In this document: one piece after another, positions 38,290 to 56,094 of the stretch | How the letters are laid out: every line of letters begins with the position of its first letter | Position numbering within the stretch: the stretch's first letter is position 1 | IMG/VR virus record: IMGVR_UViG_3300049484_000260 | Coordinates: 2,806-66,805 of that record | DNA from: a virus | Strand: one strand, 5' to 3' | DNA length: 64,000 nucleotides | Program-made: the position numbers and the translations under genes | Notes under the pieces: model-generated | Databases searched by the model: none | What the model was told of the DNA's origin: nothing | Seen by the model: the letters and a program-made list of their open reading frames with translations, nothing else

Positions 38290-39036
38290 TCAGTGATCTT
38301 CTTTACGGTTTTCATTTATCCTCCTGCCCACATCCTCAGCCTGCTCCTTGAACCCAAGTTGATGTAGTAAAGTACGTAATAGAACCCATCCATTAGCATT
38401 GTTAGGGTCAAGCTCTGTAGCCCTCCGATACAGTGCAACAGCCTCCCCTGGGTCTGTTACCCACATCAGCGCGGCCTGATGTCGAAGTGCTTCCGCCGCT
38501 TTCTGGAACGCCTTCTTGGCTTCTTCCTCTTTCCTGGCTGCGGCTTTAGAAAAGAAGGTCTGGGCCTTCACGAGATTCCCCTTTTGGAGGTCATGGAGCG
38601 CATCTGCTGCCAATTCCTCATAGGTGAAGCCCGGTGCTTCAGAGCGGCCCTGATTTTGAAGGCAGGAACAAGGCCCGTAGAGGTACTTCCGCATCTCAGT
38701 GATACTCGGAGATAGGTTCCGCATCTGTTTCCAAGCGAAGGACGCAAGGCATTCCAGTGTGTGAAAATCCCTGTAATCACTGAGATTGAAGTCCCCAAGT
38801 CCCTTTGATGACGGGTTTCCTACGGGGTTTATACTCGGTACCTCGGAAACCTCATTTTCTTTATGCGGAAGTCCTTTTGGGCGGAGGTGTAGAGGAACCT
38901 GCGACCTGTTTCCGAAGTTAGAAAGGATACTTATCAGTCCTCTCACGAAAGTGCGACACCCTAAGCTGGGATGCTGGGTGGTCTGGTTTTCTGTATCCGG
39001 GGATACAACCCCGTGTTTTTGGCTATGCGTGGTCAT
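38290..39036 (-). CDS. TPR-containing protein
   Basis: Likely start MTTHSQK at 39036; AVALYRRATELDPNNANGWVLLRTLLHQLG is a TPR repeat. Confidence 0.65.
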   Translation of the reverse strand: MTTHSQKHGVVSPDTENQTTQHPSLGCRTFVRGLISILSNFGNRSQVPLHLRPKGLPHKENEVSEVPSINPVGNPSSKGLGDFNLSDYRDFHTLECLASFAWKQMRNLSPSITEMRKYLYGPCSCLQNQGRSEAPGFTYEELAADALHDLQKGNLVKAQTFFSKAAARKEEEAKKAFQKAAEALRHQAALMWVTDPGEAVALYRRATELDPNNANGWVLLRTLLHQLGFKEQAEDVGRRINENRKEDH

Positions 39037-40333
39037 GACGTATTCCCTTTGGTGATGGGGTAAATACAGGAATTGTAGCGAAAAAGGCACTACTTCTCGG
39101 TACTGGAGGGTGGTCAGATAAAGGAGCACGATCCAGGGCGACACTACCTCCACGGGTAGTTTCTTTGTAGGAGATTACTTTAGTAACTACCGGCTCTGCC
39201 CGGCAGAGGTCGAACATCGGCACTGGTGGGAGGTCAGAGGCTGCAAAAGGGTAATCCACCTCAGTCCAAGACCCATCAGGGTCGTCAGAAGGGCCAACGG
39301 CGGGTTCGGTAACGGGTTCAGCAGGTGTATCTGAGGGGAAATCTGGGGACGGGTAATCCACCTCAGTCCAAGACTCATCAGAACCCACCGAAATTGGCTC
39401 TCTCTTCGCTTCTTGGGTGGTAGGTGGTAGGTCAGGATGTTCTCCGCCAGAAAACGAATTTAACCCCCTTTCCGTGCGTTTCTGAGGGAACCCCTCCCCT
39501 ATCTCTCCAAGGGCAGCCCGGTGCTCCAGATCAATCATGTATGCAATCAGGCGTGTAACCTCTTTAGTTCGTGACGAAAATCTCGTGACTAACTCCTGAA
39601 TGCTTACTCCTTTTTTGTACAGGCGGTACATCTCGGCCTGCATCTGAATGGTCTTGATGTCGGCAAGGGTCGGAAGCTGAATCTTCTCCCCAGGGAAGAG
39701 GAAGAGCATAGCCAGCAATAAATCACCTTGCCCATTCTGCTCAAGGATGTGCGCCAGCTTAAATCTCGATCTGTCAGAGACAATCAATGACATAAACTTA
39801 GTTGTGGTCGGGCCTACCTGTGTTAGATTTAGCATTTTCTTTGGTGTAATGAAATAGGAGAGGACTTTGCATCTGGTGGGTAACGTCATCTCTCCTAAAT
39901 CATACTGAAGAGATTCTATAGATGCCTCTTTTAAAGGAAGCAGCTCTATGTCACTTTGCACGCAATGATCACTCTGTATCTCAGCTATGGAGCTATCAAG
40001 AAGCTCTTCGTAAGAGACTGCATGATGCTCATAATGAGCTTTCAGAAAATTTGTCATTGCGTATCTAACGCCCGTGTACAGAAATGTTGATAGCTTATAC
40101 GCAGGATTGTAATATCCCTGTTTCAGCATTGAGTAAATCTTAGCAAGCCCTTCTTGTGCTAAGTCCTCAAAAATATCACTGCCGACAAACCTTAGTGTAT
40201 TACGGAAATGCTTAAAGAAAACCACACGACATAGAGCATGATACAGTGGGACGGATGTATCATCCCACTGAGCATCAAGAGCATCAATCTTAGTGAGGAG
40301 TGGTTCTCTACTTTCGGTCTTTATTGGTTTCAT
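39023..40333 (-). CDS. Sigma70 region-2 protein fused to Mor-like HTH domain and acidic tail
   Basis: EDLAQEGLAKI...YNP...KLSTFLYTGVRYAMTNFLK (sigma region 2); LFPGEKIQLPT...YKKGVSIQELVTRF (Mor-like). Confidence 0.7.
   Translation of the reverse strand: MKPIKTESREPLLTKIDALDAQWDDTSVPLYHALCRVVFFKHFRNTLRFVGSDIFEDLAQEGLAKIYSMLKQGYYNPAYKLSTFLYTGVRYAMTNFLKAHYEHHAVSYEELLDSSIAEIQSDHCVQSDIELLPLKEASIESLQYDLGEMTLPTRCKVLSYFITPKKMLNLTQVGPTTTKFMSLIVSDRSRFKLAHILEQNGQGDLLLAMLFLFPGEKIQLPTLADIKTIQMQAEMYRLYKKGVSIQELVTRFSSRTKEVTRLIAYMIDLEHRAALGEIGEGFPQKRTERGLNSFSGGEHPDLPPTTQEAKREPISVGSDESWTEVDYPSPDFPSDTPAEPVTEPAVGPSDDPDGSWTEVDYPFAASDLPPVPMFDLCRAEPVVTKVISYKETTRGGSVALDRAPLSDHPPVPRSSAFFATIPVFTPSPKGIRHDHA
39249..39381. 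repeat. Direct repeat pair (24 bp exact, 102 bp period) encoding SWTEVDYP twice
   Basis: gggtaatccacctcagtccaagac at 39249 and 39351. Confidence 0.85.
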
Positions 40334-42224
40334 CTGTAGGTGGTGCTGTGTTGTGATAAAGGAAACGAAAGAATGCCATCATAAGCCTCTCATCAGTGAA
40401 ACTGTTCGTGCATATTGGAGAGAGTGAAATCCTCAACCACACCGGTATCGCTTTACGCAGGTGAGATATCTGAGGGGTTGCTCTAAGGAAGTGCTCAGAT
40501 AGCTGTTCAAGGAATGAGAAGTAATCATCACGTAACGTAGCCAGCGGTACTTGTAAAGTCTGGTTAAGATAATCTGTAAACTTAGTGTAATCACCTTGTG
40601 AAGAGGCCACTAACATGCTAAAAAAGGTGGGAACCGTTGTTTTAAGTGTATGTACCGATTCTACCTCATCGAGTAGGATCATGTCAAGTAGATTATCACA
40701 GGTTCTGACATGACCACGTGACTTACTGATTATAGACCGAATAACGTCACCGGAAAGCACCTTTCCTTTAATCTTTGTTATGTAATCAATTCGTTCCTTG
40801 ATCTGCTGTGAGGACATTAGATTTAGATCGAGACGAAGACACCGTGACTGTAGAGGCTCGGACAGCGCATCTGCATCTGTTGTGCAGAAAATAATGAAGG
40901 TGTCTTGTGGTGGCTCCTCGACTAAGGCCAGTAACGCTGACTGGGCTTCACGGGAGCAGCTCTGGGCTTCATCAAATATGACTGTCCTATATCCTCCAAT
41001 ATGCTTAGACCTCAAATCCTCACGTAGGCTCCTTACTGCCTCAATCCGACCAATAACACTTGAATCATATTCATAAGGATTAGAATGTGTAATACACTGA
41101 ATACATTCCCCACAAGCGTCACCATTACGTTTAGAACAATTAACTGCTTTGGCAAATATCTTCGCCAATGTAGTATTATGATTGATGTACCCATCACCGA
41201 TAAAGGCATGAACCTTTGGAACGGTCAGGTCATAGAGAGGAATCGAGTCAACCAGCTCAACAGAAACCACCTGGTCTGCAAAAAGAGCACTCCTCCGGGT
41301 ACGCCGTAAGACCACAGCGGACTTCTCATCAAGGAGGTATTCTGAAATCTTCTGAGCCTCCCCTTTACAGCTTCTCGCCAGCTTCTGGCTGTAGGGGCAG
41401 AGGACTGGATCAACAAGTTGGGAGAGGATTGAGTTCTTCATCAGAGGAATGAGGTTTACACGGTAGCTCTCAATGCCCCCAAGAGAATAGGGAGGAACCT
41501 TTTTGATTCGGCTGTAGCAGCCCATCAACGCAGCTACCGCTGCAATCGCCTGAGCGTACAGGAGGTGGGAGGTTTTTAGGGTGAGGCTTCTTTCCTCCTT
41601 GACCAAAAAGGCCACGTAGCCCATCTGCTTCTCATAGGAGCCAGAGATGAACTCATCATAGGTCATACATAGGGGGTAGGGGAGGTAACGGAATTCGTAA
41701 GAGGGGAAAGGAGGGAAGGGAGGTGGGGTATTCGTTACTACCCCTATGATGTGGTGGTGGACGGTAATCTTGGAGAGCTGTGTATAGGAGACCTTCCCTG
41801 TGTCTGTATTGAGGGTGAGGACTGGGTGATGGAGAGAGCCTATTACGCTCTTCCCTGCGGCTGTAGTGATTTTGATGGTCGGCTTTATGCCGGAGTAGTA
41901 GAGGTAGCTGACGGGGAGGGTGGTCTTACCGAAGTGGAGGGAGAGGGGGGTAGGTGGGACGTACTTCATTCCTTCTGCTTTAAGGGCAGGGAAGAGGGAG
42001 CGGATTTGGCGGATGCCGTTGGGGGTTTGAATGTGGGTATCGCCGGAGACGCACTTTCCGGTACCGAATGGCCCTGCGAGGAGGATGCTGTGGAAAGAGG
42101 TGGCCGGTGCTTTGGCGATGGCTTTGAGGGCCGCTTTTGGGGTTTCTTGGCCTATTACGTCTTTGAAGGTCTGTGGGCGGTGCGCGGTCGCGGTGTTCTG
42201 AGCTGTGCTGTAGGGTGATGCCAT
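40308..42224 (-). CDS. dnaX: Clamp loader, DNA polymerase III gamma/tau-like, intein-containing
   Basis: HRPQTFKDVIGQ, Walker A GPFGTGK|TT split by intein, Zn module AVNC...ACGEC..C, IFDEAQ, LVEEPP, LQSRC, GHVR. Confidence 0.92.
   Translation of the reverse strand: MASPYSTAQNTATAHRPQTFKDVIGQETPKAALKAIAKAPATSFHSILLAGPFGTGKCVSGDTHIQTPNGIRQIRSLFPALKAEGMKYVPPTPLSLHFGKTTLPVSYLYYSGIKPTIKITTAAGKSVIGSLHHPVLTLNTDTGKVSYTQLSKITVHHHIIGVVTNTPPPFPPFPSYEFRYLPYPLCMTYDEFISGSYEKQMGYVAFLVKEERSLTLKTSHLLYAQAIAAVAALMGCYSRIKKVPPYSLGGIESYRVNLIPLMKNSILSQLVDPVLCPYSQKLARSCKGEAQKISEYLLDEKSAVVLRRTRRSALFADQVVSVELVDSIPLYDLTVPKVHAFIGDGYINHNTTLAKIFAKAVNCSKRNGDACGECIQCITHSNPYEYDSSVIGRIEAVRSLREDLRSKHIGGYRTVIFDEAQSCSREAQSALLALVEEPPQDTFIIFCTTDADALSEPLQSRCLRLDLNLMSSQQIKERIDYITKIKGKVLSGDVIRSIISKSRGHVRTCDNLLDMILLDEVESVHTLKTTVPTFFSMLVASSQGDYTKFTDYLNQTLQVPLATLRDDYFSFLEQLSEHFLRATPQISHLRKAIPVWLRISLSPICTNSFTDERLMMAFFRFLYHNTAPPTDETNKDRK
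41175..42053 (-). mobile_element. Intein (293 aa) in the Walker A motif of the clamp loader, with degenerate LAGLIDADG remnant
   Basis: Block A CVSGDTHIQTPNG, block B GSLHHPVL, block F/G IPLYDLTV...GYINHN followed by Thr+1; removal restores GTGKTTLAK. Confidence 0.93.
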
Positions 42225-42282
42225 GATTTTTTATACTCCGGTTTTTGTGATGGTGGAAATGGCCGAAAAAAATGAACTTGGT

Positions 42283-43119
42283 TCAGTTCGCTGCGGGCGC
42301 GGTGAGGACGAGGCCATTTGCAACGGCTGCATGGTTTCTGCATAAGCCCAAATCCCAAAGAGGAATTGGGTGATGCTCCTCTACACTGCATACCTGGTCA
42401 GAGAAGAGGACTGAGGGGCAAGGGAGGGAGCCAGAAAGAGGATGAGGATTAGTGATCCGCCCACAGCATCTCACCGCCTCAACAGGGTTGTAGAGGGAAG
42501 GGGAATTGTAGTAGCTCATGAGGGACTTGTTGAGCACAGATTCCTCAGAGAGGGGGAAGATGATGAGGAAAGTAGATTTCTCCTCTATGGATGCTTCCGC
42601 ATAGCATCCCATCATGTTTACCACATTTATGAGCTGACGGGCATAGACTGGGTAACGAGTTTGCAGAGAGAGGTGGCCGTCTTTTGCGAAGATGAGCTTG
42701 GCTACGGCCTTGACCTGCTGTTCGTAGGTGAAGCAAACGGGGTTGGTGACAGTGGGGTAAAGGATGGTTTCGACTTTAGCTGCTGGGTCGTCCTCGGTGG
42801 AGATGAGAGGAGCGGGGTTGGTGGCTGCGCCTACCAGGTGAGCGTTCTTGGTAATCTCGGAAAGACGAGTTGGAGATATCTGCCCTGTCTTTTTGTCTAT
42901 GGTGAGGACGGTCTGGTTCGGAGAGCCGGTCAGGTGCTTTCCAGAGCTGGTGGTGATTTCAATGGCCGGGTGGGTTCCGGTGTAGATGGCGTTGACATTC
43001 CAAGCGTGGGCGTGCTTGGTCTGCTGAGAGAGGTGGCAGTCATCGAGGGTGCGGATGCCTTCGGGGGTGTAGGTCAGCGTGTTCCAAGCGAGGCCGGGAG
43101 GGGTGTGACTGGTCTTCAT
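42283..43119 (-). CDS. Free-standing intein-like protein 1 (subtype B)
   Basis: GLAWNTLTYTPEG (Cys1 lost), ITTSSGKHLTGS, KDGHLSL...MMGC, IPLWDL...ANGLVLTAPAAN. Confidence 0.85.
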   Translation of the reverse strand: MKTSHTPPGLAWNTLTYTPEGIRTLDDCHLSQQTKHAHAWNVNAIYTGTHPAIEITTSSGKHLTGSPNQTVLTIDKKTGQISPTRLSEITKNAHLVGAATNPAPLISTEDDPAAKVETILYPTVTNPVCFTYEQQVKAVAKLIFAKDGHLSLQTRYPVYARQLINVVNMMGCYAEASIEEKSTFLIIFPLSEESVLNKSLMSYYNSPSLYNPVEAVRCCGRITNPHPLSGSLPCPSVLFSDQVCSVEEHHPIPLWDLGLCRNHAAVANGLVLTAPAAN

Positions 43120-43175
43120 GATTTTTATACTCCGGTTTTGATGATGGTGGAAATGGCCGAAAAAATGAAGTCGCT

Positions 43176-44096
43176 TCAGTTCGCTGCGGGCGCGACGAAG
43201 CCGCGCTGAATGTAACCGTTGCCGATAAAGGCTTGTGTCCTTGGGACGCTCATGCTGTAGAGAGGAATCGTGTCAGCCAGCTCAACAGAAACCACCTGGT
43301 CTGCATAGAGGTGACTTCGCTTGAACTGTCGCAAGGACAGAGGTGGGTCGCAGGAGCGGAAGTACTCCGAAATCTTCTGAGCTGCCCCTCTACAGTTCCT
43401 GGCAAGGGGGAGGACATAGGAACAGAGGGATGGGCCAACGAGCTGGGAGAGGATTGAGTCCTTTACCAGAGGAACCAGACTTATGAGGAATCTCTCTCTT
43501 CCGCAATAGAGGGAGGGAGGAACCCTCTTAATACTGCTGTAACACCCCATCAACGCTGCTACCGCAGCAACCGCCTGAGCATAGAGGAGGGAGGGGAGTC
43601 TAAGAGAGAGGCTTCCTTCCATGACCAGAAAAGCTACATAGCCCATCTGCTTCGCATAGGAGCCTGAGAGAAATTCGTCATAGCTCATGTGTGCAGGGTA
43701 GGGGAGGTGGTTGAACTCGTAGGGGGAGGGAGGGGTTTCTGTGATAGGGGTATTCGCTACTACCCCTATCAGGTGGTGGTTCAGGGTGATCTGAGCGAGA
43801 GGGATGTACTCAATCCTTTTCGTTTCTGGATTGAGGGTGAGGACTGGGTGGTTGTAGGAGCCTATGAGGACTTTCCCGGAGCTGGTCTTGATCTGGGTGG
43901 TAGGCTTTACGCCGGAGTAGGAGAGGTAGGAGACAGGGTGGGTGGTTTTTCCAAAATGGAGAGCGGTCTGCTCTGGTGGGGTATATTTGATACCCTCTGC
44001 TTTGAGAGTAGGGAAGAGGGAGCGGATTTGACGGATGCCTTTGCTGGTCTGGATAAGCGTGGTGTCAGATACGGCAGGTGTGCGGGCAGGCTTCAT
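43176..44096 (-). CDS. Free-standing intein-like protein 2 (subtype A, closest to the dnaX intein)
   Basis: GIRQIRSLFP, LHFGKTT, KQMGYVAFLV, AAVAALMGCYS, AQKISEY identical to the intein; Cys1->Ala, terminal HN lost. Confidence 0.9.
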   Translation of the reverse strand: MKPARTPAVSDTTLIQTSKGIRQIRSLFPTLKAEGIKYTPPEQTALHFGKTTHPVSYLSYSGVKPTTQIKTSSGKVLIGSYNHPVLTLNPETKRIEYIPLAQITLNHHLIGVVANTPITETPPSPYEFNHLPYPAHMSYDEFLSGSYAKQMGYVAFLVMEGSLSLRLPSLLYAQAVAAVAALMGCYSSIKRVPPSLYCGRERFLISLVPLVKDSILSQLVGPSLCSYVLPLARNCRGAAQKISEYFRSCDPPLSLRQFKRSHLYADQVVSVELADTIPLYSMSVPRTQAFIGNGYIQRGFVAPAAN

Positions 44097-44153
44097 GATT
44101 TTTATACTCCGGTTTTGATGATGGTGGAAATGGCCGAAAAAAATGAAGTCGCT

Positions 44154-45047
44154 TCAGTTCGCTGCTGGCGCGGTGGAACCGCGCTGAATGTAGCCATCGC
44201 CGATGAAAGCATGAATGGGCGGAACGTGCGTGACATAGAGGGGGATTCGCACATCCGCATCGGCAGATGTTACCTGGTCTGAATAGAGAGTCCCCCCTCC
44301 TTCCTCAGCCAGCTTTATGGTCTCTGAGGCCTCATCGCTACGGGGGTACTCCATGCTGTACATGATGTCCCCTCTGCATCCATCTGCAATGCACTGGTCA
44401 TAGGAGCAGTGGTCAGGATCAACAAGCTGAGAGAGGATTGAGGAATCAGATAGAGGGGTGAGGTTTACGAAGAACTTGGTGGGTGAACCCCCGGATGTAG
44501 GGAGGTAGGTGATTTGGCTGTAGCACCCCATCAACGCTGCTACCGCAGCGAGAGCCTGGGCATAGAGGTGGGAGGGGAGTCTAAGGGAGAGGCACTTTGC
44601 TTGCTGAACCCGGAAAGCTACGTAGTCCATCTGATCTGGGAGGGGGAGAGCAAGGAAATCCATGTAGGGGATAAAGGTGGGGATGTGGATGGGTTTAGAG
44701 GTGGGGTTATTGTTTGTCACTACTCCGATCAGGTGGTGGTACCGGGTGATTTTGGCAAGGGGGACGTACTCGACCTTCTGGGCTATGGTGTCAAGGACGA
44801 GGATTTGGTGTCTATAGCTACCGATTAGACACTTTCCTGCGGAGGTATTTATTTTGATGGTCGGCTTAATCCCAGTGTAGGTGAGGGTGGCCGGATGAAG
44901 GCTCTTGCCGAAATGTAGGCTGTCTTTGTTGGACACAATCGTAAAGTCATCGTCTCTTCCGGTGGAGACCGGGAAAATGGCGCGGATTCCATCGGAGGTC
45001 TGGATATGAGTGCCGCCTGCGATGCCGGGTGTGGATGAGAGAATCAT
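44154..45047 (-). CDS. Free-standing intein-like protein 3 (subtype A)
   Basis: Start MILSSTPG at 45047 behind the repeat RBS; AAVAALMGCYS, SILSQLVDP, HAFIGDGYIQRGSTAPAAN. Confidence 0.88.
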   Translation of the reverse strand: MILSSTPGIAGGTHIQTSDGIRAIFPVSTGRDDDFTIVSNKDSLHFGKSLHPATLTYTGIKPTIKINTSAGKCLIGSYRHQILVLDTIAQKVEYVPLAKITRYHHLIGVVTNNNPTSKPIHIPTFIPYMDFLALPLPDQMDYVAFRVQQAKCLSLRLPSHLYAQALAAVAALMGCYSQITYLPTSGGSPTKFFVNLTPLSDSSILSQLVDPDHCSYDQCIADGCRGDIMYSMEYPRSDEASETIKLAEEGGGTLYSDQVTSADADVRIPLYVTHVPPIHAFIGDGYIQRGSTAPAAN

Positions 45048-45102
45048 GATTTCTATACTCCGGTTTTTCTGATGGTGGAAATGGATGAAAAATGAAGTCG
45101 CT

Positions 45103-45921
45103 TCAGTTCGCTGCGCCAGTGACGATAAAGCCGTTGGCAAGAGCTGGCTGTGTGCTACATAAGCGCAAATCCCATAAGGGGAGCGAACCCTGATTTGCAA
45201 TACTGACCACCTGCTCTGCATATAAAACTGAGGGGGTAGAAAGAAACTGATCAAGATCAGACTTCATCCCAGAAGGGAGGCTTGTAGAATTCGCCATCAG
45301 TCCTCGACATCTCAAGGCTTCCTCCTGATTATAGAAGGAGGATGAGCCGTGATATATCATGAGGAACCTGTTGAGGGGGGCATCCTCAGAGAGGGGGGTA
45401 ATTATGATGTTCGTCTCTGTACAAATGAACGCATGACACCCCATCATACTCACCATCGAGGCAAACTGGGGAGTGCGGTGAGGGGATGTGAGCTTCAGAG
45501 AGAGACGACCCCCTATTAACGTAAGGAGATTTGTGATTGCAGCGACCTGCTTCTCATAGGAGAGGAGGGTGATTCTTGAGTTTTCCGTAGGACTAAGCTC
45601 TGCCTCTTCACGTTCGGGTAGGACGGTGTAGGTGCTAACGGCTGCGCCGATCAAGTGGTGGTTCTTGGTGACTTGGGATATAGGGATTGGAAGTATGTCC
45701 CTTGTCGTTTTGTGGATAGTCAGGATTCTGTGCTCGCGGGAGCCAGTCAGGGATTTCCCAGAGGCGGTGGTAATCTTGACGGCAGCCTGTACTGCGGCAC
45801 GGCCGGGCATCGGGGTGGGATAGGGGGTGATGTTACGATCATTGATGCGACGAACACCACAGGCGGTCTGGATGAGGGTACCGCCAGCGAGGCCGGGAGA
45901 GGTCATATTGATGAGCTTCAT
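45103..45921 (-). CDS. Free-standing intein-like protein 4 (subtype B)
   Basis: GLAGGTLIQT, ITTASGKSLTGSREH, MMGCH, LPLWDL...ANGFIVTGAAN. Confidence 0.85.
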   Translation of the reverse strand: MKLINMTSPGLAGGTLIQTACGVRRINDRNITPYPTPMPGRAAVQAAVKITTASGKSLTGSREHRILTIHKTTRDILPIPISQVTKNHHLIGAAVSTYTVLPEREEAELSPTENSRITLLSYEKQVAAITNLLTLIGGRLSLKLTSPHRTPQFASMVSMMGCHAFICTETNIIITPLSEDAPLNRFLMIYHGSSSFYNQEEALRCRGLMANSTSLPSGMKSDLDQFLSTPSVLYAEQVVSIANQGSLPLWDLRLCSTQPALANGFIVTGAAN

Positions 45922-45974
45922 GGCTTTATAGTCCTGTATATGGTGGTATAAATGATCAAAAAGATGAAGTTGGT

Positions 45975-46937
45975 TCAGTTCGCTACCGAGCGGGGTGCAC
46001 TGCGATAGATGTAACCATCTCCAACAAAAGAATGATACCGTGGAACGTACAAACTGTAAAGAGGAATCTTGTTGTAAATCTCTATAAATCCTTTTTGGTC
46101 TGTGTGTGTATGTTCAGAGTATTCAGTACACATACTACACACGCGATCCGCGAACAGTACCCCGTTAAACTCTCTAACTCTTTGTATAACCTCCTTTATC
46201 TCGTCACTAATGGCATACTCAGCGATGTAATTAGCTTCACCCTTATAGTCCCTTGCAGTCGTCCGGCTATACGTACAAAGATTACATCCTACAAGTTGCG
46301 AAAGGAGCGAGTTTTCCATCATAGGGATAAGGTTGACGTGGTAGCATGTTCTGGCTCCAATAGGCCATACTACTTCGTCAATAGAGCTGTAGCAGCCCAT
46401 CATACTCGCAGTAGCTGCAAGAGACCGAGCATACAAAGGTGAGGTAGCTCGGATAGTGTGAGACTTCTCTTTCAAAACCAGAGAGGATACGCGATCAGCT
46501 TGCTCGGCATAGTGTAAGGTGAGGAATTCCTCACAAGGGATATCCCTGCCTGGAGAGAATGGAGTGGGTGTGACCACATTTTGATTCGTTACCATCCCAA
46601 CCAGATAGTGCCCCAGTGTCACTTGAGCAAGGGGAGTATATTCCATTTTGTTTGAGATGGGATGAAGGGTCATGGCCCGATGGTCGAGGGAGCCTTCGAT
46701 AGTCTTCCCTGCTACCGTAGTGATTCTGACAGTTGGTCTATGCCCTATGTACTGAAGGATTGCAGAGGGGGTGGGGGTTATCCCAAAACTTATATGGTTC
46801 AATTTCTGCCGGATGTTGATACCGTGATCCTTTCTTTGTATCGGAAAGGTATTGTATATTGGGCGGATTCCTTGGTTGGTCTGAACAAGGGTGTCACCAG
46901 CGACACCTACACTTGGTACCAGTCTAAGATGACGCAT
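45975..46937 (-). CDS. Free-standing intein-like protein 5 (subtype A)
   Basis: GVAGDTLVQTNQG, ITTVAGKTIEGSLDH, MMGCYS, LLSQLV, IPLYSL...FVGDGYI...VAN. Confidence 0.85.
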   Translation of the reverse strand: MRHLRLVPSVGVAGDTLVQTNQGIRPIYNTFPIQRKDHGINIRQKLNHISFGITPTPSAILQYIGHRPTVRITTVAGKTIEGSLDHRAMTLHPISNKMEYTPLAQVTLGHYLVGMVTNQNVVTPTPFSPGRDIPCEEFLTLHYAEQADRVSSLVLKEKSHTIRATSPLYARSLAATASMMGCYSSIDEVVWPIGARTCYHVNLIPMMENSLLSQLVGCNLCTYSRTTARDYKGEANYIAEYAISDEIKEVIQRVREFNGVLFADRVCSMCTEYSEHTHTDQKGFIEIYNKIPLYSLYVPRYHSFVGDGYIYRSAPRSVAN

Positions 46938-46963
46938 AATCTTTGATCTCCTGTTTTATGTGT

Positions 46964-47990
46964 TCAAATATGTACACAAGAATTTGATTCTGGGTACCTT
47001 GCTACGCCACCTACGATGTACCCGTCAGCCCAGTCATTATGACGAATAGTGGGGCATATCTCGTAAAGACGAATAGAGGTGTCTATTCTCTCGGCCCTTG
47101 TCACTTGATCAGAGTAAAGAAGAGAGGGGTCAGGGGCCATTAAATCTAAAAGACACTCCGTGTATCCATCCATAGATGATTGGGGCTTAGTCATCAGTCC
47201 GCGACAAGCTGAAGCGTATATTGGGTTGTAGTAAGATTGTGGAGAATTAAATGAGGAACAGAGCCTCATCAAAAGTTGGTTTAGAATAGATGACTCGGAG
47301 AGAGGGTTTATGTGTACAAAAGTGTACGACTGCTCTTCGTCATCCAGGTTTATATATCTTGATACTGAAGTATGACACCCCATTAAACTCGCTGACGCAG
47401 CAAGGGATAGGGCGTAGTTATGGGAACTTTCCTTTATCGTAAGGAATCCTCCTGCGGATGAAAGGAGAGACCTAATGGCGATAATCTGTATCTGCTCCTC
47501 ATACGTGAGAGAGAGGAAGCGTGATATATCGCAGTTATCTGGATGTACCGGACGTATCATTACATCGAGGTCTAAGTTGCACGCATTCATAGCTATCCCT
47601 ACCAGATGATGATGATATGTAGTAACCTCCTCTAAAGATATAAAGGATATAACCTCGGTTCTTGTGTCTATAGTGAGAACCGGATGCTCTGGAGAGCCGA
47701 TTATAGTTTTCCCCGCATTTGTTTTGATCATCAATGCCTGTCCACAACCGCTACGGAATGTGTGCACACCTGTTCCGGGCATGTTGGGATACATTATAAG
47801 TAATGGAGTCCCACTGTACGGGAAAAGACTATGTAGTTGTCTGATCGGGGTTGTCCTTTTTTTCACGGAAAAATTCCTGGCGGCCGGAACATCTGAATAC
47901 AGATATCGCAGAAGGATCAATAGCTGAAAGGTTAAAGACATTGGTAAGAGCGGAAAGACCTACAAATGGGACGGTTCGGTTGTTATCCAT
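46964..47990 (-). pseudogene. Free-standing intein-like protein 6 (subtype B) with frameshifted N-terminus
   Basis: ATG 47990 gives MDNNRTVPFVGLSALTNV (block A-like) but stops; the body (IRQLHSLFP, GKTIIGSPEHPVL, LMGCH, ADGYIV) is in the +1 frame. Confidence 0.65.
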
Positions 47991-48029
47991 GATACTCACG
48001 ATAAACTTTAGTTGATGGTGATAATGTTG

Positions 48030-48464
48030 TTATGAGAGTATAGACAAATCAGGAGGCTTACCTGACTGTAGTGAGGTAATACTTTGCAGTATAATTGCTT
48101 GCCACACCACATCGCCAAGTGCGCGACGAATCGCGAGGCTTGCTTCATATAGCACCATAGCGGCATCTCTCCGTCCAATGTAATGCAGATCATATCCTGC
48201 CGCATACAGGTAGTTTGCTCGCTCCAACATATTCTCTTCTGGCAATACGGAAGCAGCCTTCTGCCAAAAAGATGATGATATGTCGTAACGCATCTTCACT
48301 CTATTCAGTCGGGCTATATCAGCGTACCCAGTTGAAGCTGCGAGCTGGTGGTATGTGATTTCACTCAATGCGCGTTTAGTCTCATCTTCAGTATATTCAT
48401 TCTCATGGTGCACTGAAGGGCGATGAAATCTAATTCCGTGAGGCGGTTCCATAGCAATACACAC
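48030..48464 (-). CDS. Short TPR-fragment protein
   Basis: AAMVLYEASLAIRRALGD is a TPR repeat; GGAGGA RBS before the GTG start. Confidence 0.6.
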   Translation of the reverse strand: MCIAMEPPHGIRFHRPSVHHENEYTEDETKRALSEITYHQLAASTGYADIARLNRVKMRYDISSSFWQKAASVLPEENMLERANYLYAAGYDLHYIGRRDAAMVLYEASLAIRRALGDVVWQAIILQSITSLQSGKPPDLSILS

Positions 48465-48489
48465 TCCTCCATTAGCTATAATGGAAATA

Positions 48490-49053
48490 TTAAATAGTGG
48501 CTATGTTCTTAGTTAATTCTCTCCAAGTTCCACCCAAGATATTGTCGATAGTAGCGAGACTGTAGTCACGGCTTAGGATGAACCGGGAAGCCGCCTCCCC
48601 CTTGAATATATACACCAGAAACAACCACAATATTCCCCCTAACGTGACGTTAAGACTAACGGCAGTACCGCTCGCATCAAACGCAATATAAAACATTGAT
48701 GTCTTACGTAGTAGTTCAGAAAGGATGTAACTCTCCCTCAACAGGGTTATCATTTTAGATGTCTCATCCTTCTCTTTGGCGATAAATGATCTCTCTGCCT
48801 CAAAAAGTCTGGTTCTTGCCTTCTGAAGGTTGGCTGCTATACGTATAAGAGATGGATCATTGCAGCTAAGACATTCCTTCCCTCTTGCATATTTACGAAT
48901 TGCAGAATTAAGAATCGATCTGTGCCGGGAGATGTCGGCCATATCCTGTCGATACTCCTGGCGAGCGAGTACTTCTTCTAATCTGCGCACTGATTTTGTG
49001 ATCTCATTCATAGTATCTAATGAAATCATCCTCTTGGTGATGTATTCTATCAT
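48490..49053 (-). CDS. Hypothetical helical protein with a hydrophobic segment
   Basis: Likely start MIEYITK at 49053; LGGILWLFLVYIF. Confidence 0.5.
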   Translation of the reverse strand: MIEYITKRMISLDTMNEITKSVRRLEEVLARQEYRQDMADISRHRSILNSAIRKYARGKECLSCNDPSLIRIAANLQKARTRLFEAERSFIAKEKDETSKMITLLRESYILSELLRKTSMFYIAFDASGTAVSLNVTLGGILWLFLVYIFKGEAASRFILSRDYSLATIDNILGGTWRELTKNIATI

Positions 49054-49063
49054 AGTATATCCG

Positions 49064-50149
49064 CTATAGTTGTGAATTATATACAATCATTCCATTAGCA
49101 GTAAATGCAGGGACATCTCCTACGTTAATCCCATACAAGGGTAGTTTTTCCAGCCACTCCACTTTAGTTACTTTGTCGGTGAACCCTGCAACCCCTCCAC
49201 CCAAATTATTATCCTTCCCTGTAAACGCTCTTAAGGTTATTCTCTTTACGTCACGATCCTCGCTACAGAGGTTTAAGAGGTACTGCTCGTTCGTTACATC
49301 TCTCGGAAAGTACATAGCACAATCATCAGCCCTGGCTGAGTTAAAGAAGGTCGGCTCCGATGAGCTACGCGGGAGGCTTGAAAGATAGTCGATATCTCCT
49401 TGCTCTTTGTGTAATTCGAGGATAAGTTTGTTAAAGGACGACTCGTGGTATGTCGGGATTATAGTAACACGATATGATGATATCGTTCTTCTGATTACTG
49501 AGAAACACCCGAACATACCGACTACAGTTGATATAGCTAAAGCATAACGGTAAGAGGGGGCGTTTACTACAGGGGGAGTAGGTTTACTTGATATCCTATA
49601 GCTGGGTATGCGATTAACAATCATTCCAGCTATTGTTAAAATCTGCTCTCTAAGGTTAAGTATGATGAATTTTTCATAGGTGACTCCTTTCTGAATACTC
49701 CTTATATACGCAATATCGTCAGAGCGGAGATATGCGTTAAATAGAGTGCTATTGCTGATAGCCCCAATTATGAAATGCTTAGTAGATACATCCGACATCG
49801 GAACGAATTGCATTATATTGTGCTTCTTACCAAAGCACATAACCAAAACGGGGAGGGATGGGGAGCCGTGTATAATCTTTCCTGAGATGGTAGTGACTTT
49901 GTAAGTAAGGTCTAATCCTGTGTACATGAGACGACTAATTTCAGAGACCGTAGCCCCAATAGGTAATGAGATACGATCCCCTTCAGTAAGGGTGCGTCCT
50001 GTGTTTGGACTTAGTTCTGGAGATGCCATAAAATCAGGAGTACCTGCCCTCTTTCCGAAGAAAGTTTGGAGTTCTCTAACCCCATCCGTAGTCTGGATAA
50101 GGGTCTGCCCAGTTATTCCTGTGGCTGGTAGGAGATTCACAAATGCCAT
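49064..50149 (-). CDS. Free-standing intein-like protein 7
   Basis: GITGQTLIQTTDG, VTTISGKIIHGS, GMFGCFS, LPLYGINV...FTANGMIVYN-S. Confidence 0.85.
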   Translation of the reverse strand: MAFVNLLPATGITGQTLIQTTDGVRELQTFFGKRAGTPDFMASPELSPNTGRTLTEGDRISLPIGATVSEISRLMYTGLDLTYKVTTISGKIIHGSPSLPVLVMCFGKKHNIMQFVPMSDVSTKHFIIGAISNSTLFNAYLRSDDIAYIRSIQKGVTYEKFIILNLREQILTIAGMIVNRIPSYRISSKPTPPVVNAPSYRYALAISTVVGMFGCFSVIRRTISSYRVTIIPTYHESSFNKLILELHKEQGDIDYLSSLPRSSSEPTFFNSARADDCAMYFPRDVTNEQYLLNLCSEDRDVKRITLRAFTGKDNNLGGGVAGFTDKVTKVEWLEKLPLYGINVGDVPAFTANGMIVYNSQL

Positions 50150-50210
50150 TTACTTACCTCGGTATATGTAGTATTTAGCTGTTACTTCGTAGGGACTCTG
50201 TATTGCTACT

Positions 50211-50239
50211 AACATAGCATATATCTTAGTTAATTACAA
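50211..50239 (-). promoter_or_regulatory. Sigma70-type promoter upstream of intein-like protein 7
   Basis: TTGTAA-17 bp-TATGTT with TG extended -10, in an AT-rich intergenic gap. Confidence 0.5.
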
Positions 50240-50286
50240 GTATATTCGTAACAGCTTAAGCGTGTTTATCGTGACGGGTAAACACC

Positions 50287-51222
50287 CTACACAGGCGAAG
50301 GAGGGAGGATATATCCTTCAGCCACAACAGCCTCTGTTCCCTCCGCTGTGAATGCGGTTAGGTCTTTGACTTCATCTCTTACCTCTATAACCCTACTGAA
50401 ACATAAGGTACAGCTCTCAAACGTAAACTTAGAGATGATGTTTGCCACATCTTCCCTCACCTTCCTACATCCTAACATGATGGATGAGGGTGTCTTGCGC
50501 AAAGGGAGAAGTTGATATGAATGCGCTGAATGTGAGAATACGTTAAAGGATTTGCATCTCGATCCACCCTGTCGTGTAGGGAGAAAGCTAACTACAGTTT
50601 GTGACGGGTTCCAGAGAGGGGCGATACTAACCCTTAATTGCGCACCATCATCTATTACTTCTACGTCTATGCTCGTAAAACATCTGACAGCGCGGGTGAC
50701 AGCAGAGACTGCTCTCGCGTATCTGTATGACGGTAGTTTAAGGTCGATTACATCAGAGGAAGTGTCTTCACAGTCTATAGAGGAGTCTATCATGTTCTTC
50801 ACATGATCGATCTGATGTCTTAGGTCTGCCGCAGTTAATTCTTTATAGCTAATTGGTATAAAACATCCACCTGAAACCGAATGATCGGGAGGGAATGATG
50901 AAAATGATGAAGAAACTTGGATCAAGCTATGCTGCCACCCTATACATGACATAGGGATTATTTCTATACTCCCTGTAATGTCGTTAGACACGACAATGCG
51001 CTGCGACGGAGACCCTGTTATACCTCCACCAGATGAGGTCAATACGGTAATAGCTGGCTTGTTTCCAATGCGACGATATGCCCATATATCGTGTATATTC
51101 ATCCCACAGACAATATCTGGAGACGGACATGTGACTACATCACCTATTTCCCTAACTCCTTCAGAACTCTGTACGAGAGTAGATGGTGTTACTCCATGAA
51201 TTACGCACACAGCATTGTGCAT
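50287..51222 (-). CDS. Free-standing intein-like protein 8 (divergent)
   Basis: GVTPSTLVQSSEGVREI, VLTSSGGGITGS, LPSYRYARAVSAV, VVAEGYIL. Confidence 0.75.
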   Translation of the reverse strand: MHNAVCVIHGVTPSTLVQSSEGVREIGDVVTCPSPDIVCGMNIHDIWAYRRIGNKPAITVLTSSGGGITGSPSQRIVVSNDITGSIEIIPMSCIGWQHSLIQVSSSFSSFPPDHSVSGGCFIPISYKELTAADLRHQIDHVKNMIDSSIDCEDTSSDVIDLKLPSYRYARAVSAVTRAVRCFTSIDVEVIDDGAQLRVSIAPLWNPSQTVVSFLPTRQGGSRCKSFNVFSHSAHSYQLLPLRKTPSSIMLGCRKVREDVANIISKFTFESCTLCFSRVIEVRDEVKDLTAFTAEGTEAVVAEGYILPPSPV

Positions 51223-51279
51223 ATTACACCCCAGTAGTTGTCATTGTAAAGATAAACTTCTTAGCAACAGTAGTAAATC

Positions 51280-52311
51280 CTATGGATGCTGTAGAATAAA
51301 TCCATTCCCCATAAAGACCATAGGATGATCGAGCCTGAGACAATGTAGCATCTCCTTACATGATGAAACGGAGGATATAACTTCAGAGTACATTATAGGG
51401 GTTACGTTATGTCTCAATGACCCTATATTAGACACATAATTACTCATAATAAGGTCTCTAATTGAAGGAGGAATATTCCAACAGTCCGGTTCTATATCTT
51501 GTAAAGCTCTATATGCCCCTGATATATTACTGTGACGATAGAACGTATTTACGGGGTGAATATCTCTCCCAACTACCGATGAATGCTTACGTTGATTTTT
51601 TATTCTCCCGTTCAAATAATGCTGATATGTCGATGATAGGTACTGCTCCATCAACATAATATTAAAAACTGAGTCATTACCCATAGGAGACAGGTAAATT
51701 GTGAAAGGTGGTTTGTCAGAATTGTGTCGTCTATATTCCTTTATCGCTGAATAGCATCCAGCCATCCCAGCAACACAAGATACTGTATTCGCAATATCGA
51801 ACGATGATACATTCAAGAACAAGTTACGATTATTACTGAAAGAGATAGAAGGGATACATACATGTAATATGCTCCCTAAGACTACAGCGATTTGCTGACG
51901 GTAGTTAAGATTAGCTATATTAGATAGATCATTTCTGTAGGAGGTGGAGGAGGTGATCGATCCTGGGTGGATATTGCACGTACCGCCAACAACAGCATAG
52001 GATGGGGTGAGCGATGATATCGACACGAATTCTACGCAATCTTTATCCTCGCGGTTATACGCAAGTACGCGAAGGTCTGGTGATCCTGTAATAACCTTTC
52101 CAGACTTAGTTACCACTGTTATTGCGTCGCATATACCTCCAGAACGTACTGACTCGATGCGGGTATCCGAGCTAAGGAGTGATACGTACCTCCCATCAGA
52201 GGTGGATGTGATTTCGTTGACGTTACTTATCGGGGTTATACCCCTAAAATAATTATCGACTGAGTGTAAGTTCACCAGAGTGCGACCACACACTGCGCTA
52301 ACGAATGCCAT
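51280..52311 (-). CDS. Free-standing intein-like protein 9 (divergent)
   Basis: AVCGRTLV, VVTKSGKVITGS, AGMAGCYS, FMGNGFIL. Confidence 0.75.
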   Translation of the reverse strand: MAFVSAVCGRTLVNLHSVDNYFRGITPISNVNEITSTSDGRYVSLLSSDTRIESVRSGGICDAITVVTKSGKVITGSPDLRVLAYNREDKDCVEFVSISSLTPSYAVVGGTCNIHPGSITSSTSYRNDLSNIANLNYRQQIAVVLGSILHVCIPSISFSNNRNLFLNVSSFDIANTVSCVAGMAGCYSAIKEYRRHNSDKPPFTIYLSPMGNDSVFNIMLMEQYLSSTYQHYLNGRIKNQRKHSSVVGRDIHPVNTFYRHSNISGAYRALQDIEPDCWNIPPSIRDLIMSNYVSNIGSLRHNVTPIMYSEVISSVSSCKEMLHCLRLDHPMVFMGNGFILQHP

Positions 52312-52331
52312 GATATTATCAAGATTATATG

Positions 52332-52353
52332 CGGGCTGGAAGGAACCAGCCCG
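52332..52353 (-). terminator. Hairpin at the 5' boundary of the intein-like array
   Basis: CGGGCTGG-ttcctt-CCAGCCCG perfect 8-bp stem after the 52364 stop; followed by AT-rich sequence, not a clean U tract. Confidence 0.5.
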
Positions 52354-52363
52354 TAATTGATTA

Positions 52364-54391: not shown

Positions 54392-54979
54392 TCATTTAAT
54401 ATTTGCATACGTTCTTATCAAGGTCGGGATACGGCAGTCCCCGAATAGGTCTCCCAGGTCTTTAGCATGATATGGGGTTGGGAATATTATACAAGGTACC
54501 CCTAAACTCGTAAGACGTTTACGTGAGTATGAAGCTCCTATCATCCCAGGATTACGACCGTCTGGTCTAATATCGTTATCATGTATAATTATTACTCTAC
54601 GTATCAGACCTATTTTATATAGAATAGATACCCATCTGGTCTGATACATATTGAGACCGTTATTTAAGATGGCAGCCGCGCACTCTGCATATCGATAGAC
54701 AGTCATAAGGTCTGCGATCCCCTCAGTAAGAATTAAATTCCCTGTCATTGGGGTGGATATAAATGCCAAAGGCATAGCACCTAAATAGTGCTCATGCTTC
54801 CCACTAATAGCCGACCTTATATAATACCCGCTGGGAATTCCTGCCCAGTCATATAGCATAGTATATAATGATGACTCAGTTACACCATCAAATACATTAG
54901 TCATTCCTTTAAACTTTGTAGGCTCTGAGGCTATTATCTTTTTCCAGTGAGGAGGTAGGGCTGTAGAATCTATTATCAT
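54392..54979 (-). CDS. Toprim-domain protein (primase-like)
   Basis: LILTEGIAD, IIHDND, GMIGA, KDLGD motifs. Confidence 0.75.
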   Translation of the reverse strand: MIIDSTALPPHWKKIIASEPTKFKGMTNVFDGVTESSLYTMLYDWAGIPSGYYIRSAISGKHEHYLGAMPLAFISTPMTGNLILTEGIADLMTVYRYAECAAAILNNGLNMYQTRWVSILYKIGLIRRVIIIHDNDIRPDGRNPGMIGASYSRKRLTSLGVPCIIFPTPYHAKDLGDLFGDCRIPTLIRTYANIK

Positions 54980-56094
54980 GATGTATAGAACTTTGGCTCA
55001 ATTCCTAATTTAGTATAGAGACGCAATAATGGTTTTGTAAGGCGTTGTACTTTCTTCTTGCCTTGGTATCGATACCCCCACCACTTAGGAAGTGGCTCTC
55101 CTGCTGCTGTGATAGCTCGTGCAAGCTCGTTGTATGATGAGAGCATGACCACCTTTAATGGCTCTTTTTCTGGGTACAGGAAAAGGAGGGTCGGTCTCTC
55201 TAAGTAATCTGCTATCTGTCTTAGAAGTTTCGGTAGTTCGGAAACAGGAACTCCAGCGCGGGTACATTGCCTCTCAGGGATCATGAAATTAACCATTCGG
55301 TGTATTACCCCACGTACCCTCCACCGATTAGGATCATGCTGGTTGCGCGAATGTGAGTGATCGACAACGGCGACAGATAAGTCCAGAGGGCGACCTGTAA
55401 CCAAGCATCTCCCTCCCTGAATGGCAAGCTGAAACTCTCTAAATGATGAGAGTGTAGAGTGTTTCAGTTTTACTACCTCAGCACGGAGTAAAAATGGAGT
55501 GAGAAGACACTCATACGGCCCATGACTGGGCGGCCATGATGGGAAGGAATCGTAGCTTGTTCTGAGTGATACCTCTGCGTACTCATAGGTTGTACATAGG
55601 GTGGGTTTCTGTATTTCGGGAGTTACACTGGTCAGGATCAGCCATGATAATTCCGTAGGAGATTTTCGGTACGCCTGACTCTTTTCCCTCAGAGGGAAGC
55701 CCTGACTCTCTGCAACCATCTTTTTAAGTAAGCTACCCAGTGGTATCTCCGGCGGCCCGGCTGCCGCCACCTTGGGGAACACACCGACCATCTCCGGCGG
55801 CCCGGCTGCCGCCACCTTGGGGAACACACCGGCCATCTCCGGCGGCCCGGCTGCCGCCACCTTGGGGAACACACCGACCATCTCCGGCGGCCCGGCTGCC
55901 GCCACCTTGGGGAACACACCGACCATCTCCGGCGGCCCGGCTGCCGCCACCTTGGGGAACACACCGCCCATCTCCGGCGGCCCGGCTGCCGCCACCTTGG
56001 GGAACACACCAGCCTTGCTAAACTTGACCACAGGCAGGAGTAGCCCTTTACATTGTGTGTACTTCATGCCTATCTCCCCGCAAATACTCTTCAA
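54976..56094 (-). CDS. Endonuclease VII-like resolvase with repeat-containing N-terminal extension (true start uncertain)
   Basis: QGGRCLVTG...VVDHSH...VRGVIHRMVN His-Me finger; Zn ligands partly lost. Confidence 0.65.
   Translation of the reverse strand: MKSICGEIGMKYTQCKGLLLPVVKFSKAGVFPKVAAAGPPEMGGVFPKVAAAGPPEMVGVFPKVAAAGPPEMVGVFPKVAAAGPPEMAGVFPKVAAAGPPEMVGVFPKVAAAGPPEIPLGSLLKKMVAESQGFPLREKSQAYRKSPTELSWLILTSVTPEIQKPTLCTTYEYAEVSLRTSYDSFPSWPPSHGPYECLLTPFLLRAEVVKLKHSTLSSFREFQLAIQGGRCLVTGRPLDLSVAVVDHSHSRNQHDPNRWRVRGVIHRMVNFMIPERQCTRAGVPVSELPKLLRQIADYLERPTLLFLYPEKEPLKVVMLSSYNELARAITAAGEPLPKWWGYRYQGKKKVQRLTKPLLRLYTKLGIEPKFYTS
55745..56010. repeat. Six tandem 45-bp GC-rich repeats
   Basis: Unit atctccggcggcccggctgccgccaccttggggaacacacc + 4-nt variable linker, starting at 55745, 55790, 55835, 55880, 55925, 55970. 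Confidence 0.97.

Follow-up and report, generated by a model that had tools for sequence, protein, structure and literature searches.

How does a phage gene come to be preceded by nine free-standing relatives of the intein that it carries, and can such copies be more than debris? The question arises from a 64-kb window (the whole stretch of DNA analysed here, positions 2,806 to 66,805 of the 66.8-kb single-contig virus record IMGVR_UViG_3300049484_000260). Inside a replication and recombination module, an array of intein-like open reading frames (ORFs) lies directly upstream of, and in the same direction as, a clamp-loader gene with an intein in its P-loop. An intein is usually regarded as a lone selfish insert whose fate is to go on splicing or to decay. 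Our best reading is that the array represents a maintained, splicing-dead intein family in a recombination-built cluster resembling the WHO clusters of yeast. It would comprise independently translated descendants of the P-loop clamp-loader intein lineage with a role at the protein level, and we put the probability of this at about 0.5. As described in two reports, the WHO clusters of Torulaspora hold up to nine diverse intein-derived genes beside FBA1, and the 3' end of FBA1 is replaced with each homing event (PMC7282813; bioRxiv 10.64898/2026.08.13.744650).

Nine relatives of a clamp-loader intein

The features of the region are as follows (aa, amino acids; Gly1 or Ala1, residue found in place of the intein nucleophile Cys1; subtype letters refer to the grouping proposed below).

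40308..42224, minus strand: clamp-loader gene (AAA+, DNA_pol3_delta2, Pfam E 5.6e-17), 638 aa, with the live intein in its P-loop
41172..42050, minus strand: live intein, Cys59 to Asn351, then Thr(+1); Hint fold plus one LAGLIDADG-like half-domain
42283..43119, minus strand: c1, free-standing copy, subtype A, Gly1, AAN-stop end, 278 aa; orthologous fragment P0025 in another assembly
43176..44096, minus strand: c2, free-standing copy, subtype B, Ala1, 306 aa
44154..45044, minus strand: c3, free-standing copy, subtype B, Gly1, 296 aa from the ATG behind the cassette (an alternative 366-aa ORF from a TTG overlaps c4)
45103..45921, minus strand: c4, free-standing copy, subtype A, Gly1, 272 aa
45975..46937, minus strand: c5, free-standing copy, subtype B, Gly1, native low GC3, 320 aa, with its VAN-stop end inside a diverged cassette
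46964..47941, minus strand: c6, free-standing copy related to subtype A, 325 aa (a 276-aa form is called elsewhere); N-terminal Hint block degenerate, so that it may be partly decayed
48030..48464, minus strand: x1, unrelated ORF inside the array; weak Pfam TPR_12 match (E 0.0037, below cut-off)
48490..49086, minus strand: x2, unrelated ORF inside the array; no family match
49064..50149, minus strand: c7, free-standing copy, subtype C, Gly1, 361 aa; terminal Asn and +1 Ser kept
50287..51222, minus strand: c8, most divergent free-standing copy, 311 aa, on a long branch
51280..52311, minus strand: c9, free-standing copy, subtype C, Ala1, 343 aa

The count of nine and the coordinates (42283-52311, minus strand) were as given in the initial annotation, which had been made from the DNA letters. 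It was also right that the ORFs carry no exteins beyond a short leader (4-10 aa precede position 1 and 0-9 aa follow block G) and that they are paralogues of the clamp-loader intein, with which all nine align end to end. Its term tandem array held for the nine copies and not for an unbroken run, since the unrelated x1 and x2 lie between c6 and c7. Identity to the live intein fell from 61% (c2), 46% (c3) and 41% (c5) through 30% (c1 and c6), 28% (c7) and 27% (c4) to 21% (c9) and 20% (c8), and the nine copies were 18-49% identical to each other. The homology of c7, c8 and c9 was tested non-circularly against a profile built without these three, and hhalign returned E values of 6e-28, 9e-19 and 3e-15, respectively. 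The local alignments of c8 and c9 covered the N-terminal Hint part and the middle domain, with the C-terminal Hint block outside. A profile search of the whole 66.8-kb genome gave exactly ten matches, i.e., the nine copies and the live intein.

An assembly artefact, considered in the initial annotation, was rejected as the origin of the array. The Logan contigs, assembled independently from the same run (and so from the same sample, which makes them no independent data), matched with 0 differences and break only at the two near-identical intergenic cassettes flanking c2. The Logan contig that carries c2 (43136-44120) had a mean word depth of 33, compared with 54 and 49 for the flanking contigs; variants without c2 could produce this, a hint that goes beyond what contig depth can show.

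The intein of the clamp-loader gene had been called intact, and Cys1, Ser-x-x-His of block B, Asp and His of block F, the terminal His-Asn and the +1 Thr are all present, so it looks competent to splice. Pfam Intein_splicing scored 33.5 bits on the clamp-loader protein, under the cut-off of 35.8. Cys1 is replaced in every copy, as first described (Gly in six, Ala in three). The reported loss of the terminal His-Asn was complete for the penultimate His (0/9 kept) and incomplete for the Asn, which c7 retains together with a +1 Ser (C-terminus Tyr-Asn-Ser-Gln-Leu-stop). Block B keeps its Ser in 9/9 copies and its His in 5/9; the Asp and His of block F are kept in 2/9 and 4/9, respectively. Despite its 61% identity to the live intein, c2 has lost Cys1, both block F residues and the terminal His-Asn. 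A Gln, a Cys and a Pro (c2 positions 150, 185 and 209) are invariant. Because the nucleophile is missing from all nine, the copies are predicted to be unable to splice.

The Hint domains proposed for all copies were recovered by Pfam in part, as weak Hint matches in three of the nine (E 6e-5 to 0.04, all under the gathering score). The AlphaFold2 (AF2) model of the live intein (predicted local distance difference test, pLDDT, 76.4) aligned over 273 residues with the TliVMA intein 7qss (VIA Z 16.0), and Z was 13-14 with mini-inteins and 10.8-11.5 with bacterial intein-like (BIL) structures. Foldseek matched the model to inteins that bear homing endonucleases (E 3e-8). Between the Hint halves the model has one alpha-beta-alpha-beta-beta-alpha unit and a few helices, with one LAGLIDADG-type helix per chain, which fits a single LAGLIDADG-like half-domain and not a full endonuclease. 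The ESM Atlas model of the exact c2 sequence (predicted template modelling score, pTM, 0.77) matched proteins with intein and LAGLIDADG_3 domains at TM 0.71-0.80 over 266-303 of its 306 residues. The AF2 model of c9 was poor (pLDDT 57.7); its best Foldseek match was 7qss at E 1.9e-3, with none at E <= 0.001, and it aligned with I-DmoI over 80 columns (root-mean-square deviation 2.8, E 0.46). A complex prediction for two c2 chains scored 0.27 (mark 0.42), which is uninformative either way.

LAGLIDADG homing endonucleases have a conserved catalytic acid and either two motifs per chain or a homodimer of single-motif chains. The copies might be thought of as active free-standing endonucleases, strictly WHO-like, which cut rival clamp-loader alleles and drive their own block in by gene conversion. 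They have a fold with a LAGLIDADG-like domain, form a diverse cluster as WHO genes do (bioRxiv 10.64898/2026.08.13.744650), and adjoin the presumed target gene, whose composition is chimeric and changes at the intein junction. However, the model contains one half-domain only, no LAGLIDADG Pfam family matched any of the ten proteins (nine copies and live intein) at E <= 1, no zinc finger or other added DNA-binding domain was found in the copies by Pfam, and, in our reading of the alignment, the copies differ at the acidic position where the LAGLIDADG-like helix ends. We regard endonuclease activity as improbable.

Selection and relatives beyond the window

Each of the nine copies is free of in-frame stops over its 272-361 codons, and the other five frames have 2-41 stops each. 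Synonymous sites were saturated for most pairs. The ratio of nonsynonymous to synonymous divergence (dN/dS, NG86) was 0.34 for the live intein and c2, 0.38 for c2-c3 and 0.43 for c1-c4. The uncorrected ratio (pN/pS) was 0.47-0.69 in six pairs, among which c2-c3 and c1-c4 are those with both sides free-standing, and for each pair 0 of 500 bootstrap replicates reached 1. The copies thus look to be kept by purifying selection. The initial annotation had taken them not to be decaying neutrally, and the open frames, the pN/pS values and free-standing relatives in other contigs, including a c1 orthologue, agree with this.

To place the family, an exhaustive profile search of 1.84 billion representatives was performed. 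It gave 1342 matches at E <= 0.001 and 15 at E <= 1e-30, the latter being the nine window proteins and six from elsewhere. The next matches (E >= 1e-19) were ordinary inteins that aligned in the Hint blocks only, many of them at residue ~50 of clamp-loader-like proteins. Weaker fragments included, the outside relatives from other assemblies numbered 12. Four of these are live clamp-loader inteins, i.e., P0005 (with N-extein and Cys1) and P0015, P0017 and P0058 (ending HN|TTLARVFAKAVNC). Extein-less relatives were also found: P0012 (297 aa, Gly1, VAN end) and P0013 (323 aa) are free-standing at both ends and probably share a contig, each being on one of 2553 bp, and P0025 (127 aa) is a c1 orthologue (63% identical over 124 aa). 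In P0014 a 5-aa leader precedes a Cys, and the C-terminus is aberrant. Since P0025 and c1 have Gly1 and a short leader in common, the free-standing state appears to be old and not confined to this genome.

Other searches added little. Near and distant DNA searches of a phage collection with the array gave no match, and tblastn with c2 yielded no more than three helicase inteins, all distant (identity 28% across 32% of the query). Scans of the viral contig collection found no relatives of c2, the clamp-loader C-extein, P0014 or P0012, a scan of the genome contig collection found none of c2, and a word-indexed protein search gave two further fragments only. In the ESM Atlas, viral clusters of ~330-430 aa combine LAGLIDADG_3 and Intein_splicing; they may represent additional free-standing forms or simply fragments of genes. 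Free-standing dead inteins may therefore be found more widely than at this locus.

A first tree, of 13 full-length family members and three outgroup inteins, recovered the family as one clade (100/100), with c1+c4 (99/97), c6 joining them (91/92) and c7+c9 (92/84). When partial sequences were added in a second tree, the live intein grouped with c2 (97/96) and c1 with c4 (100/95). The live-intein fragment P0017 fell with c7, c9 and P0069 at 84/94, below the strict threshold. In BLASTP the best match of P0017 was c7 (34% over 177 aa); the live intein of the window was matched by no more than the last 38 residues of P0017. Taken together, the sequences fall into three old subtypes, A (c1, c4, c6), B (live intein, c2, c3, c5) and C (c7, c9, and perhaps c8). 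The grouping and BLASTP match of P0017 suggest a C-type intein at the clamp-loader site elsewhere. The same site thus seems to hold a B-type intein here and a C-type intein in another phage, with free-standing members of both types.

The diversity of subtypes bears on the possibility that the copies modulate splicing in trans, binding the clamp-loader precursor or its intein so as to time or block splicing and control replication. Such a role would suit their shared fold with the live intein, their place just upstream in the same transcription direction, and the loss of splice residues in a copy as close to the live intein as c2. Nine copies at 20-61% identity are nevertheless hard to explain by one partner, and relatives hold free-standing copies of several subtypes together, so we give this explanation very little chance.

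A degraded relative of the array region was found in a 6.1-kb metagenome contig (L001, 1-6115). It contains a cassette, an x1 homologue (ORF 1885-2472), a second cassette and a frameshifted clamp loader with intein, and is neighboured by a plasmid-type Rep gene and a toxin-antitoxin-like pair. A deletion has joined the start of its C-extein to the tail of a sigma-like gene, and the same junction is present in a second contig, L002. In the window, a 436-aa ORF just downstream of the clamp loader (39023-40333) has a weak match to sigma-70 region 2 (E 8e-5, below cut-off) and carries the motif SWTEVDYP twice; this tail motif is found again in L001 and L002.

Decay is thus possible in this region, and the nine copies might be a neutral graveyard: non-functional relics of displaced or duplicated alleles in which stops have not yet arisen, with only the cassettes functional, in the service of neighbouring genes. 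The splice residues were lost in a patchwork, the N-terminal block of c6 is degenerate, P0025 and P0014 may be broken genes, and an inactive, extein-poor intein of phage origin has been described as a pseudogene (PMC3196547). Against this, all nine frames are open although synonymous sites are saturated for most pairs, pN/pS stays below 1 in 500/500 bootstraps of the six pairs, the free-standing c2-c3 and c1-c4 included, and the Gly1 and short leader common to c1 and P0025 point to an old free-standing state. A graveyard is therefore unlikely in our judgement.

Cassettes and a mosaic clamp-loader gene

The spacers between the clamp loader, c1, c2, c3, c4 and c5 are 53-58 nucleotides (nt) long and belong to one shared sequence, a cassette of ~75 nt. 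It runs from GCAGCGAAC-TGA through a hairpin of 5-6 bp, a T-run, a conserved box and GGAG (Shine-Dalgarno) to an ATG ~10 nt later, often as ATGAAG. The cassettes, and the block of high G+C content at third codon positions (GC3) in which four of them lie, are located as follows.

42222..42294, minus strand: cassette upstream of the clamp loader, shared sequence
43117..43187, minus strand: cassette upstream of c1, shared sequence
44094..44165, minus strand: cassette upstream of c2, shared sequence
45042..45114, minus strand: cassette upstream of c3, shared sequence
45919..45986, minus strand: diverged cassette upstream of c4, shared sequence in diverged form; distal boundary of the GC-rich block
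41172..45950, no strand assigned: GC3-rich block by composition, with the live intein, the N-extein, c1-c4 and four strong cassettes; the diverged fifth is at its distal edge

The 15-nt core of the cassette occurs in four mismatch-free copies, with a diverged fifth between c5 and c4. Allowing up to 2 mismatches, the window has one other match, with 2 mismatches, at 18288 on the other strand (shuffles average 0.18). The cassette encodes the last four codons (AAN-stop); for c1, c2 and c4 it provides the first two codons (ATG AAG) as well. In L001, one of the two cassettes, with GCAGCGAACTGA, follows the stop codon of the x1 homologue, a non-intein gene. As the cassette is non-coding there, the AAN-stop and VAN-stop tails are best explained as its by-products and not as catalytic Asn residues. 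The AAN tail of c1-c5 was accordingly rejected as a catalytic remnant, and the VAN end of P0012 is probably a by-product as well. Window and L001 share 81-87% identity in the cassettes and 66-69% in the coding DNA, which argues for constraint on the cassette; the pairing of its hairpin is kept through a C/G swap and a register shift.

Linkage of the copies by read-through or as a polyprotein was rejected, because spacers of 56, 57 and 58 nt shift the frame and the T-run varies in length. The c3-c2 spacer (44097-44153, 57 nt) has no stop in the c3 frame past the TGA, so that read-through of one stop would fuse c3 to c2; this looks accidental, given lengths of 56 and 58 nt for the remaining spacers. 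A scan of the viral contig collection for the cassette pattern gave 0 matches. Nine single matches in the genome contig collection were dismissed as chance, with ~9 expected by our own estimate, no shared flanks and no family member encoded.

The composition of the region is mosaic. GC3 is 0.66 in the N-extein, 0.63 in the live intein and 0.59-0.66 in c1-c4, and falls to 0.39 in the C-extein, 0.39-0.46 in c5-c9 and 0.40-0.48 in other neighbours. Along the clamp-loader gene, the codons up to 350 have values of 0.48-0.80 and codons 351-400 values of 0.20-0.24. The drop from 0.48 to 0.24 separates the windows of codons 326-350 and 351-375. The block thus ends within 25 codons of the splice junction, which falls at codons 351/352. 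Its distal edge is at the c5/c4 cassette, near 45950. Hence ~4.75 kb, comprising c4, c3, c2, c1, the N-extein and the live intein, is of foreign composition, and its boundaries are the splice junction and a cassette.

DNA identity to L001 is 82-93% in the N-extein and first intein codons, 48-75% in the intein interior, and 76-77% in the last intein and first extein codons, which fits an exchange of intein alleles between conserved flanks. We propose that recombination, acting at the cassettes and at the junction of intein and C-extein, built the cluster and has reshuffled it. The proximal 4.75 kb, from c4 to the live intein, would have arrived as one block from a GC-richer relative, with the splice junction as its downstream end. 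Different phages would hold different subtypes in the live site, and old intein alleles would pile up on the upstream side of the gene, much as WHO genes have collected next to FBA1 in yeast.

Recent exchange was not seen: gene conversion between copies was rejected, and none was visible between the live intein and the copies tested, where the best 30-codon window reached 82% nucleotide identity. This touches an idea of the initial annotation, that the array is a reservoir from which the live intein is diversified. The idea gained indirect support from the foreign block that ends at the splice junction and from the C-group live intein elsewhere, and is weakened by the lack of any visible recent conversion tract. 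In its strictest form the copies would be DNA only, homologous donors for allele change at the live intein, with their proteins irrelevant. B-group and C-group live inteins do occupy the same site in different contigs, and the phage encodes recombination genes of its own (RecA-like and SbcCD-like). On the other side, a donated N-terminus would kill splicing, because every copy lacks the nucleophile, and a DNA-only role leaves the preserved frames and pN/pS below 1 unexplained. We consider it highly improbable.

Known systems, possible roles and genomic setting

With yeast HO and WHO genes the array has in common that its members are free-standing, intein-derived and not dependent on protein splicing. 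As in WHO clusters, diverse members (as many as nine) lie next to a single conserved host gene, and the host gene may likewise be chimeric with one end replaced, as GC3 composition suggests here. In contrast to WHO, the host is a phage and not a yeast, the array is upstream and the 5' end looks replaced (WHO: downstream and 3' end), and a live, apparently splicing-competent intein of the same family is still present in the array's host gene. Unlike WHO genes, the copies have no C-terminal zinc finger (by Pfam; they end <=9 aa past block G) and, from sequence and models, have one LAGLIDADG-like half-domain without a conserved catalytic acid. These differences are substantial, for which reason we class the copies neither as WHO elements nor as homing endonucleases.

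Several other systems share single features with the array. The gene Arth_1007 (Arsp-FB24) is an inactive intein of phage origin with exteins of 66 aa in total, and was judged a pseudogene by its authors (PMC3196547). It is like the copies in phage origin, near absence of exteins and loss of essential residues, and does not splice; it is a single gene, whereas the array has nine copies that show signs of purifying selection, and an adjoining live homologue. The closest described analogue of the cassette is the PeSL cassette of T4-type phages, reported as a stem-loop intergenic unit at which recombination shuffles modules (PMC2839356). Both are short, conserved, intergenic stem-loop elements flanking non-essential genes of plastic regions; unlike PeSL, the array cassette has no detected sigma-70-like promoter, has a hairpin of 5-6 bp and overlaps coding ends.

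Single in-gene P-loop inteins of DnaX/RFC-type clamp loaders, e.g., P0018, occupy the same site (GK|C ... HN|TT) and have a very similar N-terminal Hint block. They differ in a full-size LAGLIDADG endonuclease, where the array family has a reduced middle domain and free-standing members. BIL domains reside within larger, variable proteins. They share the Hint fold and a possibly incomplete splicing ability, but the array copies stand alone and their family scores closer to true inteins in structure (Z 13-16 against 10.8-11.5). A literature search, supplementary files excluded, turned up no paper that describes an array of free-standing inteins in a phage.

If the copies are maintained, they would be kept for a non-catalytic action, most likely binding of DNA or of the clamp-loader precursor by the middle domain, and this is the weakest step of the proposal. 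Such binding would serve competition between intein alleles or co-infecting phages at the clamp-loader locus. We favour such a non-catalytic binding role tied to competition at this locus, although taken by itself it is less likely than not. DNA binding, modulation of splicing and a decoy role, as offered in the initial annotation, would be speculative. A fuller version, which strikes us as rather unlikely, would make the array the phage counterpart of WHO: alleles would compete for the P-loop site, each takeover would replace the 5' part of the gene as far as the splice junction, and the losers would be archived upstream and domesticated as dead, allele-specific binders of DNA or precursor that guard the resident or hinder rivals.

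A number of observations weigh against a maintained, recombination-built family with a protein-level role. A terminator and promoter scan flagged nothing at the cassettes and no sigma-70-like promoter, and their RNA folding is ordinary (z-scores -0.9 to +1.3), with a short hairpin. The sequencing runs listed as containing this DNA comprised the probable source run, as contigs, and no RNA run. Part of the divergence may have accrued while the copies were live inteins, so that their open frames say less, and the patchwork loss of active-site residues and the degenerate N-terminus of c6 also fit slow decay. The middle domain has no LAGLIDADG Pfam match in any of the ten proteins and, as we read the alignment, its helix does not end in a conserved acidic residue. 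In the second tree the P0017 node (84/94) rests on a partial sequence, and c8 and P0013 stand beside the outgroups with weak support on long branches. Unlike in WHO clusters, there are no host-gene fragments between array members (the c1-c5 spacers being 53-58 nt), and similarity follows no strict order, since the copy that adjoins the gene, c1, has no more than 30% identity to the live intein. The 85-93% identity of the N-extein to L001 could be due in part to stronger constraint on the extein, and the GC3 break is a mosaic by composition, silent on direction and mechanism.

The locus brings together a live intein and nine old, non-splicing relatives that look selected, in a small phage genome with clear recombination landmarks. 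If the copies are functional, they would represent a second, independent route of intein domestication besides yeast HO/WHO, and conflicts over homing sites would be able to shape phage replication modules. The ten related Hint proteins make a compact test set for the scaffold of Hint and half-LAGLIDADG domains after loss of splicing, and the conserved cassette is a candidate element for regulation and for recombination.

The virus record is classed as linear in IMG/VR, with a completeness of ~50% by CheckV, and all long ORFs of the window are on the minus strand. Structural genes identified by PHROG are the large terminase, portal-MuF, major head protein, major tail protein and tape measure; the replication and recombination module has a primase fragment, endonuclease VII, an SbcC-like protein, a calcineurin-like phosphoesterase and a RecA-like protein. 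The 1046-aa ORF at 31890-35030 has both the portal and the MuF-like head-morphogenesis matches, and a long C-terminal extension without a PHROG match. The endonuclease VII-like ORF (54976-56094; phrog_423 at residues 207-301) begins with six tandem 15-aa units of the VFPKVAAAGPPEM type, with several frames open across both strands of the repeat DNA. Between c9 and the 367-aa ORF upstream of it, a strong GC-rich hairpin of 10 bp (52330-52355) is followed on the coding strand by TATAAT, ~20 nt before the c9 start codon, and this may mark the start of the array transcription unit.

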